Shown here in pieces: positions 56,321 to 63,786 of a stretch of DNA of 64,000 bases (position 1 is its first letter; each line of letters opens with the position of its first letter). Origin of the DNA: Candidatus Hydrogenedentota bacterium (GTDB taxonomy: Bacteria; Hydrogenedentota; Hydrogenedentia; Hydrogenedentales; SLHB01); assembly GCA_045863335.1 (NCBI GenBank), contig BTVY01000007.1, forward strand, positions 64,001 to 128,000, in the 5' to 3' direction. Below the pieces are notes generated by a model. That model had not been told where the DNA came from. It did not search any database and saw nothing but the letters and a program-made list of their open reading frames with translations. A program made the translations under genes and the position numbers.

Positions 56321-57718
56321 GTGCCTGAATTGAATATCCCGATCCTATCCGGGTTGCGCGAGTTGGACCGCGCGCCGCGCCAGTTCTTGTATTTCATCGT
56401 GTTCAACGTGGTTTCCTGGCAATGCATCGTCGGGAACGCGCTGGTGCTGTTTGCCCGGAGCCTGGATATCCCCGCGTCTTGGGTGGGGTTTCTTATCGCC
56501 TTCATGCCCCTGTCCATGTTGCTGGTGTTGGTCACCGTTCCGCTGGTCACCTACCTGGGACCGCGCCGGCTCATGTCGACGGCGTGGGGTTCGCGTTGCG
56601 TGGTCATCTGCGCGGTGTTCCTGATTCCCTTTGTGATGGACCGCTACGGGCTGAAACCGGCGCAGTACGTGCTCATGGGCGCGACGCTGGGGTTCTGTCT
56701 GTTGCGGGCTATGGGCGGGGGCGGCTGGTTTCCATGGCTCCATGAGGTGGTGCCGGAACACCAGCGAGGCACCTACTTCAGCACGGAATCGGCCATCACG
56801 CAGCTCCTCTGGGTCGTGGTGGCCTCGGCGCAGGCATTCATCCTGCACGAGAACCCGGGCCTGTACCACTTCCTCGCCTTGTACGCCATCGGGATTGCCG
56901 CCGGGTTCATCAGCCTCATCTACATGGTTCGCGTACCGGGCGGCCGGGGTGTGACCGAACGAGTTTCCATGCACTCAAGCTTTGGAGCGTACCGGATTAC
57001 CCTGTCTGACCGGCCTTTCCTCCAGTTCGTGGTCGTCGCGACGCTATGCTTTTCGTGCTTGACGTGGCTCTCCGCGGCGCTGGTTCTTTACATGCGCGAC
57101 GCGCTCGGATACTCGCCGAGGGACATCATGTTGATTACGGCCGCCGGCGGCGCGGGTATCCTCGTCACGATCCGCCAGTGGGGCCGGTTCGCCGACCACT
57201 CGGGCAGCGGCCGCGCCATGTTCCTGAGTCTCGTGGGACACAGCGTCAGCGCGCTGGTTTTCCTCATGATCGTTCCCGGCGCCTGGTGGACGTGGTGGCT
57301 GCTCCCGCCGACGGTGGTCTTTTCGGGCGTGTTCGCGGCAGCCTATACCATGGCCGCCCACCGCGCCATGCTGAATTTCGTTCGCTCGCCCGGTCGCGTG
57401 GCCTACACCAATTTTTGGACCGTGGGGACGTCACTCGCCTTGGGCATCACACCGATTCTCGTGGGGTACTCGATCGATCATTGGGGACTCTGGGGATACC
57501 GCACCTGCTTCCTGGCCTGTGCCATTGGAGGAATCTGCTGCGCAGTGGCGAGCCGATTTGCCGTCCAGGACAGCACGCCGCTCGAACCTTCGCTGAGCCG
57601 GCTCGTCAATCCGGCCTTGCCAGTGCGCACGCTCGCACGCATTCTGTGGATCACACTGGGACTGCACGAAAGCGGACGGCGCACAGGGGCGGCGCTTCGT
57701 CCGTCAGACCGATCGTGA
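56321..57718 (+). CDS. MFS transporter
   Basis: About 12 TM helices, W..EVVPEHQRG.YF, WGRFADHSG loop motif. Confidence 0.85.
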   Translation: MPELNIPILSGLRELDRAPRQFLYFIVFNVVSWQCIVGNALVLFARSLDIPASWVGFLIAFMPLSMLLVLVTVPLVTYLGPRRLMSTAWGSRCVVICAVFLIPFVMDRYGLKPAQYVLMGATLGFCLLRAMGGGGWFPWLHEVVPEHQRGTYFSTESAITQLLWVVVASAQAFILHENPGLYHFLALYAIGIAAGFISLIYMVRVPGGRGVTERVSMHSSFGAYRITLSDRPFLQFVVVATLCFSCLTWLSAALVLYMRDALGYSPRDIMLITAAGGAGILVTIRQWGRFADHSGSGRAMFLSLVGHSVSALVFLMIVPGAWWTWWLLPPTVVFSGVFAAAYTMAAHRAMLNFVRSPGRVAYTNFWTVGTSLALGITPILVGYSIDHWGLWGYRTCFLACAIGGICCAVASRFAVQDSTPLEPSLSRLVNPALPVRTLARILWITLGLHESGRRTGAALRPSDRS

Positions 57719-57774
57719 TTTTCCCGATTCCTCGGCCGTGGTTCACGGCATAGCCTAGTCTTCGTTAATGCATT

Positions 57775-57835
57775 GTATTTACTTCATTTATATTGTCAAG
57801 AATTTCTCCACAAATGAAGATACATATGATATACT
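57775..57835 (+). promoter_or_regulatory. AT-rich promoter/operator of kor-hdrA operon
   Basis: Extended -10 TGaTATACT (57827-57835); inverted repeat CTTCATTT/AAATGAAG; Rex-like TTGTCAAGAATTTCTCCA (57793-57810). Confidence 0.55.
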
Positions 57836-57881
57836 CGATTTAGTGCCGACGATTGTCACCGTATTCAGGGGGAATGAAGTA

Positions 57882-58202
57882 GTGACTTCGACACCGGGCT
57901 ACCCGCGTACGCCTATGGACCGGGACACGGCGTACGTACCAAGGGGGCAAGTATTTGTGATCCCGGGACGCTGCAAGGGCTGCGGCTATTGTATCGAGTT
58001 CTGCCCGCAGCTCGTTCTTTCCACGTCCAGCGACATCAACGCGAAGGGTTACCACTACCCTATCGTCGCGGATGAAAAATCGGACGCATGCATCCACTGC
58101 GGCTTTTGCGATGTCGTCTGCCCCGAGTTCGCCATCTACACGGAAGAGATTGATGCGCCCGGATCTCAGGCGTTGGAGGCGCACGATGCCGGGAACCGTT
58201 AG
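57882..58202 (+). CDS. korD: 2-oxoacid:ferredoxin oxidoreductase delta subunit (2x[4Fe-4S])
   Basis: CKGCGYCIEFCP and CIHCGFCDVVCPEFAI; GTG 57882 with AGGGGG RBS (ATG 57915 is an alternative). Confidence 0.9.
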   Translation: MTSTPGYPRTPMDRDTAYVPRGQVFVIPGRCKGCGYCIEFCPQLVLSTSSDINAKGYHYPIVADEKSDACIHCGFCDVVCPEFAIYTEEIDAPGSQALEAHDAGNR

Positions 58203-59361
58203 CGCAACATCCAGCACTCCGCCCCGCGTCATGACCGGCGAGCACTTCATGGTCGGCGACCACGCCTGCGCGGAAGGCGCCCTCGCGGCCGGTCTGGATT
58301 TCTTCGCGGGATACCCGATTACCCCATCCACCGAGATCTGCGAACGGCTTGCCCACCGGCTGCCGCAGGTGGGCGGAACCTTCGTGCAGATGGAAGATGA
58401 ACTGGGCAGCATCGCCGCCATTCTGGGCGCATCCGCCGCTGGCGCGCGCACCTTGACCGCCACGTCCGGCCCGGGCTTCAGCCTCATGATGGAGAACATC
58501 GGCCTGGCGGCGATGATGGAGATTCCCTGCGTCATCGTGGACGTCATGCGCGGCTCGCCTTCTACCGGTCTGCCCACCTTGGTCGGGCAAGCTGACGTGT
58601 TCCAGGCGCGCTGGGGTTCTCATGGCGATTACGGGATTGTTGCGTACTCGCCCTCCTCGCCGCAGGAGTGTTTCGATCTCACAATCCGCGCATTCAATGT
58701 GGCGGACCGATTGCGCATTCCCGTGTTCGTGTTGATGGACGAAGTCATCGGCCACATGACGGAGCGCGTCGTGATTCCGCCGGCGCATCAGATTCCCCGC
58801 GTGGATCGAAAGCGGCCGTCCCACGAACCCGGCGACGCGGTGTTCCTGCCGTTCAAGGCGGACGCCGATTTGATTCCCCCCATGGCCCACGCGGGCGAGG
58901 GGTACAACGTGCATTTCACGGGGCTGACCCACGACGAACGGGGCTACCCCGCGTTGAACGCGCAGACTCACGAGCAATTGGTCACGCGGCTGGTCAACAA
59001 GGTGGCCGTTCACGCGCCCGAAGTTATCCTGACCGAGGAAGTCGACCTCGACGACGCGGAAGTAGTGGTCGTCGCGTTCGGCTGCACGGCCCGCTCGGCA
59101 CGCCGCGCGGTAGCGATGGCGCGTCAGCAGGGTGTCAAGGCGGGATTGCTCCGGCTGATTTCGTTGTGGCCCTTCCCCGAGGAGCGCGTTCGAGAATTGG
59201 GACGGCGGGATGCGGTGAAGCGATTTGTGGTGCCTGAAATCAACATGGGGCAGATGTGCCGCGAGGTGGAACGCCTTACCCATCTGCCCGTGCAGTCCAT
59301 CAACCGGGCCGGCGGCGCCATGATCACGCCGCAGTCGATTCTGGAGGTGCTTGTGTCATGA
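58186..59361 (+). CDS. korA: 2-oxoacid:ferredoxin oxidoreductase alpha subunit
   Basis: AGYPITPSTE, QMEDE, TATSGPGFSLMME, RGSPSTGLPT, ARWGSHGD; substrate not established. Confidence 0.92.
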   Translation: MPGTVSATSSTPPRVMTGEHFMVGDHACAEGALAAGLDFFAGYPITPSTEICERLAHRLPQVGGTFVQMEDELGSIAAILGASAAGARTLTATSGPGFSLMMENIGLAAMMEIPCVIVDVMRGSPSTGLPTLVGQADVFQARWGSHGDYGIVAYSPSSPQECFDLTIRAFNVADRLRIPVFVLMDEVIGHMTERVVIPPAHQIPRVDRKRPSHEPGDAVFLPFKADADLIPPMAHAGEGYNVHFTGLTHDERGYPALNAQTHEQLVTRLVNKVAVHAPEVILTEEVDLDDAEVVVVAFGCTARSARRAVAMARQQGVKAGLLRLISLWPFPEERVRELGRRDAVKRFVVPEINMGQMCREVERLTHLPVQSINRAGGAMITPQSILEVLVS

Positions 59362-60278
59362 GCGTTCCGGCTCCAGCCGCTACCCAATTCGTTGAAGAGC
59401 ACCCAATCGATACCCTCCTCCGCGCCGACCGCTTTCCTCATATTCTCTGCCCCGCCTGCGGCATTGGCTCCGTAATCCATTGCTACGTACAGGCCATTTC
59501 CGAATCGGGCATCGACAAGGCGCAGCACGTATGCGTGTCGGGTATTGGGTGCAGTGGACGCGCGGCGGGCTACATCAACGTCGACAGCTACCATACCACA
59601 CACGGGCGCGCGGTACCGTTTGCGCTGGGCATTGCGGTGTACCGGCCGGAATTGTGCGTCACGGTGATCAGCGGCGACGGCGACCTGTCGTCCATCGGCG
59701 GCAACCATTTGATCCATGCCGCGCGCCGCAATGTGAATCTGAACATCATCTGCATCAACAACTTTAACTACGGGATGACCGGCGGTCAGGCGGGGCCGAC
59801 GACCCCGGTAAGCGCCAAGTCGTCCACAACGCCTTTCGGCAGTTGGGAGCGCCCGTTCAATCTCCCCCACCTCGCGCACGCCGTCGGCGCTTCCCTGGTG
59901 TCACGGTGGACGGTATTGCATGCGCGGCAACTCAAGCAGACGATTCTCAAGGCCATGCATAAGCAGGGCTTTGCGTTTATCGAAGTCCTCTCGCCCTGCC
60001 CTACCGGTTTCGGCCGGCCGAACGATCGGGGCGATGGAATCGAAGACATGCGGCGGTACCGCCAGCGTTGCGTCATTGACGACGAGGCGTACCTTCCGGA
60101 CATTGACATCGATATAACGGACGACACGAGCCCGATTGTGGTGGGGAACTTCGTCGACATCGACCGCCCCCCCTTCCAGCCGGTGCTCGGGGCGCCTCGT
60201 CGTGAAGTGGCAAAGGTATTGGCGGAAAACGCAAACCAACGGACGAGATCCCGGGAGTCGATTGGCCATGAGCACTGA
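59358..60278 (+). CDS. korB: 2-oxoacid:ferredoxin oxidoreductase beta subunit (TPP-binding)
   Basis: CPACG, SGIGCS, HTTHGRA, GDGD..IGGNH, NNFNYGMTGGQ, SPCPT. Confidence 0.92.
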   Translation: MSVPAPAATQFVEEHPIDTLLRADRFPHILCPACGIGSVIHCYVQAISESGIDKAQHVCVSGIGCSGRAAGYINVDSYHTTHGRAVPFALGIAVYRPELCVTVISGDGDLSSIGGNHLIHAARRNVNLNIICINNFNYGMTGGQAGPTTPVSAKSSTTPFGSWERPFNLPHLAHAVGASLVSRWTVLHARQLKQTILKAMHKQGFAFIEVLSPCPTGFGRPNDRGDGIEDMRRYRQRCVIDDEAYLPDIDIDITDDTSPIVVGNFVDIDRPPFQPVLGAPRREVAKVLAENANQRTRSRESIGHEH

Positions 60279-60831
60279 GACAACGCAGAACGGCCCTGTC
60301 CAAATCCGCATCGCCGGTTACGGTGGGCAGGGCGTCATTCTAACCGGCATGCTATTGGGTAAGGCCGCCAGTCTGTACGATGCGAAGGAAGCGGTGTTTA
60401 CCCAATCCTACGGACCCGAGGCGCGGGGCGGCGCATCAAGCGCGGACGTGGTGATCTCGTCCGATCCTATTGACTATCCCCTGGTGACGGAGCCGGATAT
60501 TCTCGTGACGCTATTTCAGGAGGCGTACAGCAAGTACCGGCCCAGCTTGAAACCCGGTGGCACGCTTATCGTGGAGAGCGATCTTGTGCATACCAACGGC
60601 GACGCCAATGTGGCGGGGCTTCCCGCGTCGCGCATGGCGGAGACGATCGGCCGCCGCATCGTCGCGAACGTCGTCGTATTTGGCTATCTCGTGGGCAAAA
60701 CGGGCGTCGTCAGCAAAGAGGCCGCCATGAAAGCTATTGAAGCGACGGTCAAACCGAAGACTTATGAATTGAATCTGAAGGCGTTTACAGCGGGATACGC
60801 GCGGGCCACGGAGGAGTCGGGCCGTGAGTGA
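60268..60831 (+). CDS. korC: 2-oxoacid:ferredoxin oxidoreductase gamma subunit
   Basis: AGYGGQG, QSYGPEARGGAS, N.KAF..G. Confidence 0.92.
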   Translation: MSTETTQNGPVQIRIAGYGGQGVILTGMLLGKAASLYDAKEAVFTQSYGPEARGGASSADVVISSDPIDYPLVTEPDILVTLFQEAYSKYRPSLKPGGTLIVESDLVHTNGDANVAGLPASRMAETIGRRIVANVVVFGYLVGKTGVVSKEAAMKAIEATVKPKTYELNLKAFTAGYARATEESGRE

Positions 60832-62230
60832 TGCCGTACTCGTCGTGGGTGGTGGTATCGGCGGTCTCCGCGCGGCGTTAGACCTCGCGCATGCGGGCGC
60901 GCGCGTCGTTCTTGTGGAAAACAAGGCAACCGTCGGCGGCAAGCTTGCCGCACTATTGGAAGAGGGACGGACGGCCCTGGACCTGCCCGAGGGCGCGTGG
61001 CTACCCACCCTGGCGCAAGTGGAAGCCAGTTCGCAGATCGAGATCCTCACGCTTTCCGAGGTGGTCGCGCTGTCCGGCGAACCCGGCGAGTTTGCGGTGA
61101 CCATCCGCTCCCGTTCCCGCTTCGTGAGCGACGTCTGCGACCATTGCAGCGTCTGTAAGCAGGTCTGCCCTGTCGTGCGTCCGAATGAATACGATGCCGG
61201 TCTCTCCTTTCGGAAAGCCATCTTCAGTCCCTTGAAGAGTCCGGTGCCGTCTTCGTTCGTCATCGATATCGACAGTTGCTTGAACGACCCGCCGAACTAC
61301 ATACCCTGTCAGCGTTGCGTAGAGAATTGCCATGTAAGCGCGATCAGTTTCGACACGCCACTGGAGCGGACGATTACGCGGGACGTGGGAAGCGTCGTGT
61401 TGGCGGCGGGCTTCGACCTGGACGGCGAGAAGGCGCTCGTAAGGTTCGGATACGGCAAACACCCCGACGTGGTGACGTCGCTCGAATTGGAGCGGCTCTT
61501 CGCGGCGTCGGGCGCGACCGGCGGGTACGTGGAGCGGCCCTCCGACGAGCGCGATCCGGAACGGGTGCTGATTGCGATAGCCGATCCCACGGACTTCACC
61601 TGGACCTACACGGCCCGGCACGCGAAGCGCATGCTGGATCAAGCGCTGGAACACGTGACCATTGCGTACGAATCGCCTGCCTCCAGCGGCAAAGGTCCGT
61701 CGTCGTTCCTTCCCGGTTCGGTACGGGAGAAGACACGGCTCGTTCATGCGACGGTCGAATCCGTCAATCCAGACTCGGGCGGCGCATTGCTGGTGACCAT
61801 GCGGGATGGAAGAACGGGCTCCGTTGTGAGTGAAGCGTTTGATCTCGTCGTAGTCGCGACGGCCGTACAACCACCAAGGAGTATGCCGACCGTATCAGAC
61901 GCGTTGGGGGTTCGTCTTGGGCCGGACGGGTTTGTCCGAACAACGGAAAAGGATGGCGCACGCGTGGTAACCAGCCGCCCCGGCGTTTACGCTTGCGGGT
62001 GCGTGACCGGTCCGAAAAACATTCACGAGACGCTGACGGAAGCGGCGGCGGCTGTGGAACAAGCGTTTCAACACGCGCGGCGTGGCACGCGGCGGGCAGG
62101 TCCGCCAAAGCCCGAACTGGAGCCTTCGGGCAATGGGATATCGGAAGATGCCTTGCGTCAGCGGATGGGGCAAGTGGTCGAAACGCTAATCTCCATGGGC
62201 GAAAAGCGCCTCACCAACGGGAACTCCTGA
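60824..62230 (+). CDS. HdrA-like FAD/[4Fe-4S] oxidoreductase (truncated, divergent)
   Basis: VVGGGIGG, inserted ferredoxin domain (CDHCSVC...CP; C...CQRCVENC), NEYD.GL..RKAI, YG....VVTSLELER...SG.TGG...RPSD, GC..GPK.I. Confidence 0.85.
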   Translation: MSDAVLVVGGGIGGLRAALDLAHAGARVVLVENKATVGGKLAALLEEGRTALDLPEGAWLPTLAQVEASSQIEILTLSEVVALSGEPGEFAVTIRSRSRFVSDVCDHCSVCKQVCPVVRPNEYDAGLSFRKAIFSPLKSPVPSSFVIDIDSCLNDPPNYIPCQRCVENCHVSAISFDTPLERTITRDVGSVVLAAGFDLDGEKALVRFGYGKHPDVVTSLELERLFAASGATGGYVERPSDERDPERVLIAIADPTDFTWTYTARHAKRMLDQALEHVTIAYESPASSGKGPSSFLPGSVREKTRLVHATVESVNPDSGGALLVTMRDGRTGSVVSEAFDLVVVATAVQPPRSMPTVSDALGVRLGPDGFVRTTEKDGARVVTSRPGVYACGCVTGPKNIHETLTEAAAAVEQAFQHARRGTRRAGPPKPELEPSGNGISEDALRQRMGQVVETLISMGEKRLTNGNS

Positions 62231-62235
62231 CGCGG

Positions 62236-62574
62236 TCAAACCTCGTCCAGCGAATCCAGCATGGCCCGGATCTGATTTTCCATCCGGTCGAGGAGGTCGA
62301 CCACTTCTTTGCGTGTCTTCGGACGCCCCTCCCCTTTCAACTCTTGGGCAAGCCGTACGCGCGCGCCTTCGGTGGAAAGCTTTTCGTGCCGCAACAATTG
62401 CTTGATGCGCCGCACGATCTCGATGTCGCCGGAGCGGTAGTATCGGCGATTCGCACGATCGCGCCTCGGTTTGAGCTGAGGAAATCGGCTTTCCCACTGG
62501 CGAAGGATATAATCCGGCACGTCGGTTAACTCGCTGACCTCGCGAATGCTGTATCGTTTTTCGGGATGTTCCAT
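62236..62574 (-). CDS. MerR-family HTH regulator
   Basis: YSIREVSELTDVPDYILRQWE..F..LKP.R....RRYY; start set at MEHPEK. Confidence 0.9.
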   Translation of the reverse strand: MEHPEKRYSIREVSELTDVPDYILRQWESRFPQLKPRRDRANRRYYRSGDIEIVRRIKQLLRHEKLSTEGARVRLAQELKGEGRPKTRKEVVDLLDRMENQIRAMLDSLDEV

Positions 62575-62611
62575 GTTCTGACCAAGTCTGGTTCTACTAC
62601 CAAACGCGTAA

Positions 62612-62855
62612 GAACATCCCCCTTGATCCCCCTTCAAAGGGGGAAAAGCCCACAACGCTCCGCGTTGCGAAGAGCGCGGATCGCAATCTCGGAATTCCCG
62701 TTCACCGTCTTCAAAATGGGAATTGAGGAGCGCGCTCCGCGTGCTCTCTTCTTCGGGTCGCTCGGCGCGCGACGAATTGTCATAGCGCGGTCTTTCGATC
62801 CCTCGATCGGGGGACGGCAGATTCCCCGTTTGAAGGGGGATCAAGGGGGATGTTC
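62612..62855. mobile_element. MITE/REP-like element with 34-bp terminal inverted repeats
   Basis: GAACATCCCCCTTGATCCCCCTTCAAAGGGGGAA (62612-62645) and its inverse (62822-62855), 33/34 identical. Confidence 0.72.
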
Positions 62856-62898
62856 AATTGTACTCTCGAGCGTGCCGGCGCAACGTTGCCAGCCCCGA

Positions 62899-63786
62899 TC
62901 ACGCGCCGAGCCAATCCTGCGGCTTCAGGTAGACCTCCGTCAACTCGGCTTCGGGCGTGCCCGGTTCGGGGCGCCAATCGTAGCGCCACTTCGCGACAGC
63001 CGGCATGGACATGAGGATCGACTCGATGCGGCCGCCGGACTGCAATCCGAACAGGGTGCCCCGATCGTACACGAGGTTGAACTCCACGTAGCGCGATCGC
63101 CGGTAACATTGAAAATCGCGCTGCGCGTCCGTGTACGGCGCGTCGCGATGGCGCTCGATCAGAGGCCGGTACAATGACGGAAAGGCGTTGCCCAAGGCAC
63201 AGACAAATTCGAAGTTCTTCTCCGCGTCGTGCCGGAGGTGATCGAAGAATAGCCCTCCCACTCCGCGCGTTTCGTTCCGGTGCCGGATGAAGAAGTACTC
63301 GTCGCAGGCCTTTTTATGTGTTACATAGTCTTCACCGCAAGCATCGCAGAGTTGCTTCAACTCGCGGTGGAAGGCAACCACGTCTTCGCGTACCGGATAG
63401 TACGGCGTCAGGTCGACGCCGCCGCCGAACCACCACAGGTCACCCGCCTCGAAATAGCGCACGTTCAGGTGGATCGTGGGCACATGCGGGTTCCAGGGGT
63501 GTATGACCAGACTGACGCCGGTGGCCACGAAGGGAGTGTCCGGCGCGATATTGAATTGCGTCGCGGCGGACGCGGGAAGACTCTCGCCATGGATGGCGGA
63601 AAAATTGACGCCGCCCTTTTCGATCAGCGGGCCGCCTTCCCACACGCGCGTGATGCCGCCACCGAAGCCCTTCTCGTAGGACCACCGGTCCTCGCGGTAC
63701 GCTGAGCTGTCTGCCTCGACCAGAAAGCTCGCGATGCGATCTTGTATGTCGCGAAAAGCGGCCTCGATCGCATCAACGCCCGGCAC
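62899..63786 (-). CDS. hemF: Oxygen-dependent coproporphyrinogen III oxidase
   Basis: EKGGVNFS, GVSLVIHP.NPHVPT.H.N.RYF, WWFGGG.DLTP, RGVGGLFFD, RYVEFNL..DRGT.FGL. Confidence 0.95.
   Translation of the reverse strand: MPGVDAIEAAFRDIQDRIASFLVEADSSAYREDRWSYEKGFGGGITRVWEGGPLIEKGGVNFSAIHGESLPASAATQFNIAPDTPFVATGVSLVIHPWNPHVPTIHLNVRYFEAGDLWWFGGGVDLTPYYPVREDVVAFHRELKQLCDACGEDYVTHKKACDEYFFIRHRNETRGVGGLFFDHLRHDAEKNFEFVCALGNAFPSLYRPLIERHRDAPYTDAQRDFQCYRRSRYVEFNLVYDRGTLFGLQSGGRIESILMSMPAVAKWRYDWRPEPGTPEAELTEVYLKPQDWLGA

Follow-up and report, generated by a model that had tools for sequence, protein, structure and literature searches.

Introduction

Among electron-bifurcating flavoproteins, HdrA is the textbook case, with iron–sulfur (FeS) clusters that are regarded as essential wiring. 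Here we report an HdrA-like gene without part of this wiring at the end of a korDABC operon, which encodes a four-subunit 2-oxoacid:ferredoxin oxidoreductase (Kor). The locus lies in a 64,000-nucleotide (nt) stretch from a Candidatus Hydrogenedentota bacterium (assembly GCA_045863335.1, contig BTVY01000007.1, positions 64,001 to 128,000; hereafter the window, with positions counted from its first letter). With a probability that we put at about 60%, the gene product is a reduced HdrA derived from the first half of a tandem HdrA and acts as a dedicated, non-bifurcating redox partner of Kor, probably as its fifth subunit. These results point to an unstudied five-part form of 2-oxoacid:ferredoxin oxidoreductase in several aerobic lineages.

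The best-described relative is methanogen HdrA, known from the MvhADG-HdrABC and Fdh-Hdr complexes (PDB 5odc, 7bkb and 8rvu). In canonical HdrA, the inserted domain leads to ferredoxin and the flavin-domain cluster leads to HdrBC, while the route that leads from flavin adenine dinucleotide (FAD) into the inserted domain is described as passing via the N-terminal cluster (PMC9012536). HdrA works as a dimer in which C197 ligates the N-terminal cluster of the partner (PMC9012536), and K409 and E356 have been proposed as marks of bifurcating HdrA (PMC12054007). Known shortened HdrA classes include minimal ‘A0’ forms and class A6, which lacks the terminal domains and is described as keeping the flavin-domain cluster, unlike the window protein (PMC12054007).

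Kor and Hdr have been linked before. In tubeworm symbionts and Thioflavicoccus mobilis, korABCD is interspersed with flxABCD-hdrABC in reductive tricarboxylic acid cycle clusters, and direct electron delivery from Hdr to 2-oxoglutarate:ferredoxin oxidoreductase (OGOR) was proposed (PMC6315080, PMC11636981). In those clusters a four-subunit OGOR is genetically tied to HdrA, as Kor is at the present locus. However, they hold full HdrABC and Flx for CO2 fixation, whereas here there is no HdrBC or Flx and the hosts carry 2-oxoglutarate dehydrogenase and oxidases (PMC6315080, PMC11636981).

The literature searched, with supplements and most subscription journals outside its scope, contained no HdrA without the flavin-domain cluster yet with the inserted domain, no fixed link of such a protein to korDABC and no Kor-Hdr-Etf module. 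Two 2-oxoacid:ferredoxin oxidoreductases (OFORs), the 2-oxoglutarate:NADP+ oxidoreductase of Azoarcus evansii and the phenylglyoxylate:NAD+ oxidoreductase PadEFGHI, reportedly bypass free ferredoxin by means of an added flavoprotein subunit. These subunits are reportedly NAD(P)-binding types unrelated to HdrA. The window protein differs from such NAD(P)-linked flavoproteins in having no second dinucleotide motif in residues 247-292; Pad family names do appear among the NCBIfam matches.

A reduced HdrA closes the korDABC operon

Open reading frames, Pfam and NCBIfam place korD, korA, korB, korC and the HdrA-like gene in a tight string on the + strand at 57882-62230, with start codons set by conserved N-termini. 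The initial annotation described the five genes as overlapping end to start. This holds for korA/korB (4 nt), korB/korC (11 nt) and korC/hdrA-like (8 nt), whereas korD and korA are separated by a gap of 28 nt. The HdrA-like gene (60824..62230, +; 468 aa) begins with a GTG codon 8 nt inside korC; the junction reads GTGAGTGA, with a GGAGGAG box just 5'.

The four-subunit make-up of KorDABC is complete in this operon. KorD (57882..58202, +; 106 aa) is the ferredoxin-type delta subunit with 2x[4Fe-4S] and two CxxCxxCxxxCP motifs; it matches Fer4_7, its eight cysteines are invariant across 17 aligned rows, and its best NCBIfam match, OGOR_delta, is below cut-off. The alpha subunit KorA (58231..59361, +; 376 aa; POR_N and PFOR_II) scores 544 bits against NF006412 (cut-off 411), and its closest solved chains are 1yd7, a Pyrococcus furiosus 2-keto acid enzyme (5.6e-109), and then 8ys5, a 2-oxoglutarate synthase (5.8e-81). 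KorB (59358..60278, +; 306 aa; TPP_enzyme_C) is the beta, thiamine pyrophosphate (TPP) subunit, which overlaps korA through ATGA, and KorC (60268..60831, +; 187 aa; POR) is the gamma subunit. Among the NCBIfam equivalogs, that of alpha alone is above its cut-off, and the beta, gamma and delta scores are below theirs. As to the substrate of Kor, the best models are generic 2-oxoacid types, and the 2-oxoglutarate-specific OGOR models score below cut-off.

The best NCBIfam match of the HdrA-like protein is HdrA2, at 264 bits (cut-off 1100) over profile positions 140-567 of 777; the score for the HdrA family is 206 bits, below the cut-off of 1400. With phmmer, the solved HdrA chains 8rvu and 5odc match at E values of about 1e-56, at HdrA residues of about 145-565 only. 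The N-terminal cluster domain and the ferredoxin domain at the C terminus of methanogen HdrA are therefore absent, as had been claimed. The remaining span consists of a thioredoxin-reductase-like flavin domain with an inserted 2x[4Fe-4S] ferredoxin domain.

The features shared with methanogen HdrA are the FAD fold, the inserted domain, LELER and GPKxI, which agrees with the first description of the gene. The FAD dinucleotide motif GGGIGG occupies residues 9-14 (60848..60865, +), and G9, G11, G14, E32, G38 and G39 are conserved in the short and long forms of the family described below. The inserted domain (residues 99-176; 61118..61351, +) contains CxxCxxCxxxCP and the family signature CLNDPPNYIPCQRCVENC, and all of its cysteines (105, 108, 111, 115, 152, 162, 165 and 169) are present. 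Relative to methanogen HdrA, its second cluster motif is longer by seven residues (LNDPPNY), placed between the motif's first two cysteines. LELER is found at residues 220-224 and GPKNI at 396-400.

We counted residue equivalences along the printed alignment, in 5odc numbering, to define the losses. All ligands of the flavin-domain [4Fe-4S] cluster are gone (C386 to I252, C399 to a gap, C403 to T259, C404 to W260). In the degenerate LDKxFPTxDCxxC region (residues 44-58; 60953..60997, +), where model confidence is low, both DCxxC cysteines are replaced (C194 to L54, C197 to G57). K409 has become R265, whereas E356 is retained as E223, and YMDIRAFxKG reads YESPASSGKG. No frameshift or stop was found in the gene and all of these changes are in frame, in line with the original account of replaced cysteine motifs. 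The former cluster-binding subdomain, residues 247-292 (61562..61699, +), in which the equivalents of C386, C399, C403, C404 and K409 are replaced, is still a confident beta-alpha-beta unit in the structural model.

This AlphaFold2 model, built from 33 relatives, has a pLDDT of 83.4 and a pTM of 0.78. Foldseek ranked HdrA chains first (TMq 0.73), followed by the HdrA-like subunit 6tjr (TMq 0.58) and then thioredoxin reductases; sequence identity to solved HdrA is 28-29%. The 6tjr chain is sHdrA of Hyphomicrobium denitrificans (E 2.5e-23), which reportedly keeps the flavin-domain cluster and lacks the inserted domain, and would thus be the opposite reduction to that of the window protein. According to the model and the alignment, a C-terminal helix (residues 441-465; 62144..62218, +) follows a disordered linker (421-438), and its pattern L..R.E..L..L...G appears in the majority consensus of short forms.

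Short and long HdrA forms share the position behind korC

Searching 5.8 billion proteins for relatives of the HdrA-like protein returned about 35 of 437-515 aa, 34-83% identical, all without the flavin-domain and DCxxC cysteines. In two partial proteins (P0020, P0034) from the same search, the CLNxPPNY signature stands together with the cysteines. When 1.84 billion representatives were searched with a profile, CLNxPPN was present in 19 of the 150 best-scoring proteins, of which 17 lack and 2 retain the cysteines of the flavin domain; 119 of the 150 are other, cysteine-containing HdrA relatives.

A genome scan with one genome per species found 520 stretches matching CLNxPPNY[LIV]P and VCP[VQ]Vx[PA]NE[YFH], and the best 80 were used. 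Of the 81 loci, 27 (the window locus and 26 others) encode short forms, 457-490 aa where complete, in which all three cysteine motifs are missing. Cysteine-containing forms are encoded in the remaining 54 loci, and the complete long ones among them have 876-1188 aa, mostly about 1130. In tblastn searches with the five window proteins, korC is directly upstream on the same strand in 78 of the 78 loci with upstream DNA, for short and long forms alike, and lies within 150 nt of the HdrA-like gene in 73 of them. All four kor genes are present in 69 of 80 loci; nine are cut by contig ends and two begin inside the HdrA-like gene. The initial annotation had named missing synteny with kor as a result that would speak against its reading, and this did not occur. 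In five loci (L021, L055, L073, L011, L013) the gap from korC to the HdrA-like gene is 157-1512 nt, with extra DNA or a gene inserted.

The short form is the surviving first half of a tandem HdrA

The long form consists, in order, of the shared core, a CHCGxNI-motif domain, a second pyridine-nucleotide-disulphide-type flavin domain, a dicluster ferredoxin and FlpD/MvhD; CHCGxNI is a motif known from HdrA N-termini. The long form is a tandem ‘type II’-like HdrA in the sense in which PMC12054007 uses the term, and of the fused HdrAs described in PMC9012536. With the window protein it shares the upstream korDABC, the CLNxPPNY signature and 39-45% identity over the shared core, as a sister or parent group. 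Unlike the short form, the long form keeps the cluster cysteines and K409, adds the further domains and is followed by HdrD-like and EtfAB genes.

In L072 and L020, an HdrD-like gene (ferredoxin and two CCG domains), etfA and etfB lie downstream of the long form. Among loci with at least 3.2 kb of downstream DNA, these three genes follow 39 of 39 long forms but 0 of 25 short forms. Long-form loci thus hold an eight-gene module, korDABC-hdrA/mvhD-hdrD-etfAB. The window locus has the korDABC genes and the CLNxPPNY signature of this module, without the tandem HdrA/MvhD, the HdrD-like gene or etfAB.

We built a maximum likelihood tree (quick search) of the shared core that included the 25 short forms of sufficient length. 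The short forms fall on one side of a branch with SH-aLRT support of 100, and of 99 after 45 motif-bearing columns were dropped. A single state change on the tree suffices for the cysteine-less trait, and since outgroup HdrAs and long forms both carry the cysteines, this change was a loss. Given the same core and signature, the upstream korDABC, the tree and the presence of hdrD-etfAB after the long form only, the short gene is the surviving first half of the HdrA of the eight-gene Kor-Hdr-Etf module.

The remainder of the module was searched for in the window genome (99.4% complete), which has no second HdrA and no FlpD/MvhD domain and only two unlinked CCG-domain frames. The earlier observation that no hdrBC, mvhD or flx genes are in view thus holds for the window, and as regards FlpD also for the genome. 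Across genomes, FlpD/MvhD hits occur in 24/24 long-form versus 11/26 short-form genomes; the short-form hits are small or weak, and none is in a frame of more than 1000 aa. FlpD/MvhD was dropped as a clean marker of long versus short forms because of these 11 matching short-form genomes. Weak FlpD/MvhD-like matches (E 1e-9 to 1e-17) lie in frames of ~510-560 aa (G010:C7:41788-42060, G011, G014, G016, G018, G019, G021, G022); in G010 and several others, the contig with such a frame also has matches to cytochrome-oxidase subunit I at a distance of a few kb. Among the stand-alone FlpD/MvhD frames of long-form genomes, several (G027, G031, G041, G043, G050) contain a single in-frame TGA, as selenocysteine MvhD proteins would.

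The ferredoxin branch is conserved under purifying selection

The reading frame is intact in 27/27 short-form loci. Nei-Gojobori omega values of the short gene are 0.04-0.2 overall, where estimates from pairs with dS above about 1.5 suffer from saturation and are not for close reading. For pairs with dS below 1, omega is 0.051, 0.043, 0.145 and 0.172 in the HdrA-like gene versus 0.02-0.08 in the kor genes of the same pairs. Selection on the short gene is clearly purifying and somewhat looser than on Kor. A decaying copy among orthologues that keep their cysteines, the other outcome that the initial annotation had set against itself, is thus not what we found: a whole cysteine-less clade is under purifying selection.

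All eight inserted-domain cysteines are kept in 25/25 short and 51/51 long forms. A column-by-column comparison shows that both forms have in common the FAD-binding residues, GYGxHPD, GPTGG and essentially the whole inserted domain, which is the most conserved part of the protein. Positions constrained in long forms but free in short ones are confined to residues 45-64, 255-263 and 282-299, around the lost cysteines. The K409 equivalent is lysine in 51/51 long forms and 7/7 outgroups; among the 25 short forms, S is the most frequent residue there (13), followed by R (7), A (3), and K and T (1 each). At the E356 equivalent, the short forms have E in 16 and Q in 9. When these losses are set against the roles given to the parts of HdrA in PMC9012536 and PMC12054007, each lost element belongs to a route whose partner is also gone, and the ferredoxin branch is retained.

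Short forms accompany 2-oxoglutarate dehydrogenase and haem-copper oxidases

By record titles, short forms occur in Hydrogenedentota, Woeseiaceae, other Gammaproteobacteria and metagenome-assembled genomes (MAGs) labelled Nitrospirota and FCB group, and long forms in Chloroflexota (mostly Anaerolineae), Rokuibacteriota/Methylomirabilota, Elusimicrobiota, Planctomycetota and Sysuimicrobiota. The genomes searched belong to 26 short-form loci and to 24 of the 54 loci with long forms. A match to the 2-oxoglutarate dehydrogenase E1 family is present in 25/26 short-form versus 4/24 long-form genomes, and haem-copper oxidase (cytochrome oxidase subunit I) in 26/26 versus 18/24, a co-distribution that is to be read as a pattern and carries no statistical test, because the short form arose once and MAG completeness is not stated. 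The window genome has both enzymes. This pattern suggests that the long module serves organisms with Kor as the main 2-oxoglutarate enzyme, and that the short form accompanies an auxiliary Kor in aerobes. Oxygen adaptation as the cause of cluster loss was considered and set aside, as oxidase genes are also found in 18/24 long-form genomes and the split is unclean.

Discussion

We propose a model for the origin and function of the short HdrA. The ancestor would have been the eight-gene Kor-Hdr-Etf module, presumably a flavin-based bifurcating or confurcating unit. One gene lineage would have lost the second HdrA half, MvhD, HdrD, EtfAB, the flavin-domain [4Fe-4S], the C197-type ligand and Lys409, and the stripped gene would later have spread among aerobes with 2-oxoglutarate dehydrogenase. 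The HdrA-like gene, probably translationally coupled to korC and under purifying selection, would encode a protein whose inserted domain docks on KorD and exchanges electrons with the KorD clusters, in place of the free ferredoxin of canonical HdrA. Its FAD may act as a converter between one-electron FeS and two-electron chemistry, toward an acceptor or a donor. For the binding to Kor and for the path, direction and acceptor of the electrons, this model is what we infer from the sequence, fold and gene neighbourhood.

The initial annotation had suggested a dedicated, probably non-bifurcating exit subunit. Of this, it is the non-bifurcating part that gains support, because the K409 equivalent is lost, K409 has been proposed as a mark of bifurcation (PMC12054007) and the other electron routes are lost as well.

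Several observations weigh against a role as redox partner of Kor. Since the N-terminal cluster that would bridge them is absent, the FAD may lie too far from both clusters of the inserted domain for electron exchange. By eye, residues 247-292 contain no classical glycine-rich NAD(P) dinucleotide motif. Q273 is the sole fully conserved residue specific to the short clade, which gives no sign of a new substrate pocket. Branches are long in the short clade, where evolution is faster than in the long clade, and in some pairs the omega of the HdrA-like gene is 2-5 times that of the kor genes. Moreover, the sample of loci was chosen by family motifs, and the synteny with korDABC applies to the motif-bearing subfamily and not to HdrA in general. 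The predicted complex of KorD, KorC and the HdrA-like protein counts neither way, as its score was no lower with an unrelated protein replacing KorC.

The missing bridging cluster, whose role follows PMC9012536, would also fit a protein that is an FeS wire or scaffold only. The inserted-domain clusters would then extend the KorD wire to an external ferredoxin or flavodoxin, and the flavin fold would be a frame with its FAD structural or absent. The strong conservation of the inserted domain and the constraint lost around the former flavin cluster and K409 would both fit. We nevertheless consider this unlikely: the FAD-binding glycines, E32 and the GxxxxG...GPK motif are kept across lineages that are only 35-40% identical, and a 390-aa frame would be costly for an 80-aa ferredoxin module.

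Less likely again is a separate co-transcribed enzyme outside the Kor complex, namely a flavoprotein that would depend on ferredoxin or KorD and whose substrate would be some small molecule (a disulfide, O2 or peroxide, or quinone). A flavin sink for low-potential electrons would be sensible in hosts that are aerobes by their cytochrome oxidase (26/26), and an O2-dependent coproporphyrinogen oxidase is encoded two genes downstream. However, the start codon lies 8 nt inside korC, the gene order is invariant across phyla, and conserved residues of a new pocket were not found.

Lower still in probability, the protein could be bifurcating or confurcating as before, either as a homodimer or with partners encoded elsewhere, such as Etf or CCG-domain proteins. 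The window protein and 16/25 short forms retain E356, two CCG-domain frames exist elsewhere in the genome, and HdrA acts as a dimer (PMC9012536). Yet a single FeS chain is left, K409 is lost in 24/25 short forms, neither MvhD/FlpD nor a second HdrA is encoded in the genome, and HdrD and Etf are absent within 3.3-6 kb at 25/25 short-form loci. Finally, a decaying leftover after loss of the Hdr-Etf module, which the faster evolution of the short clade and the several lost cofactor sites might suggest, is contradicted by the frame being intact in 27/27 loci, an omega of 0.04-0.2, invariant cluster cysteines and FAD motifs, and the spread of the gene over several phylum labels.

If the short form is indeed a dedicated redox partner of Kor, it is tempting to speculate about a new class of 2-oxoacid oxidoreductase, although we regard this extension as doubtful. 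Such an enzyme would be five-subunit and ferredoxin-independent, and would operate in aerobic bacteria including Woeseiaceae, which are widespread in sediments, and sludge Hydrogenedentota; its HdrA-derived FAD subunit would take electrons directly from KorD and deliver them pairwise to NAD(P)+, quinone or oxygen. Its origin would lie in a Kor-Hdr-Etf bifurcating supercomplex that was stripped to its ferredoxin branch on the operon's move into oxygen-respiring hosts.

A conserved HdrA with FAD and the ferredoxin-branch clusters only, tied to a Kor operon, offers a natural minimal version in which the role of each HdrA part can be probed. The pair of short and long forms shows how bifurcating machines are dismantled in evolution and provides matched test cases for biochemistry. 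Our results also suggest that, next to the ordinary dehydrogenase, some aerobic heterotrophs use a 2-oxoacid enzyme of an oxygen-sensitive type that has a flavin outlet of its own, a point of relevance to the flow of carbon in wastewater sludge and marine sediments.

Flanking features and occurrence

An MFS transporter gene lies 5' of korD on the same strand, beyond an AT-rich gap. This gap contains a promoter-like site, TCCACA-17-TATACT (57807..57835, +), which scores 9/12 in a consensus scan and is a weak signal (2 found versus 1.2 expected). A terminator-like hairpin (62286..62302, +), 56 nt past the stop codon of the HdrA-like gene, is likewise weak (8 found versus 5.1 expected in the scan). 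Rfam gave no match in 57000-63000. A run recorded as RNA (X2) has contigs over almost all of 57500-62435, one of which (60661-61084) spans the korC/hdrA-like junction; these contigs extend across the intergenic gaps on either side as well, and as contigs from an RNA library are no proof of transcription, we did not count them for an operon transcript. Three further runs (X18-X20) hold only short pieces at 95-99% likeness.

Downstream are a MerR-family gene (62236-62844, -) and a gene for coproporphyrinogen III oxidase of the oxygen-dependent type (62899-63786, -; PF01218, E 1e-118), and this pair is kept at the same place in the five closest Hydrogenedentota loci (L001-L005). Among the flanks of short forms we found no further neighbour gene conserved across lineages, only lineage-specific ones: MerR and coproporphyrinogen oxidase in Hydrogenedentota, RnfB-like and pyruvate:ferredoxin oxidoreductase (PFOR) genes in Woeseia-type loci. 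In the latter Gammaproteobacteria (L028:1-2920 (- strand), L043, L050, L058, L079, L080), an RnfB-like membrane FeS protein (PF04060 and dicluster) and a large PFOR are encoded beside korDABC-hdrA-like, divergently in four loci and downstream in two, an arrangement that resembles a local low-potential redox cluster.

One HdrA-like protein 99% identical to that of the window comes from a MAG titled ‘uncultured Nitrospiraceae’ (L002), while the 96% and 78% identical relatives (L001, L005) are titled Hydrogenedentota; the Nitrospiraceae label is probably wrong. DNA near-identical to 57500-62435, whole or in part, occurs in metagenome runs from sludge, bioreactors, biofilms and wastewater (20 rows from 14 studies). 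Seven of these rows hold at least half of the sampled words, and the organism appears to be common there.

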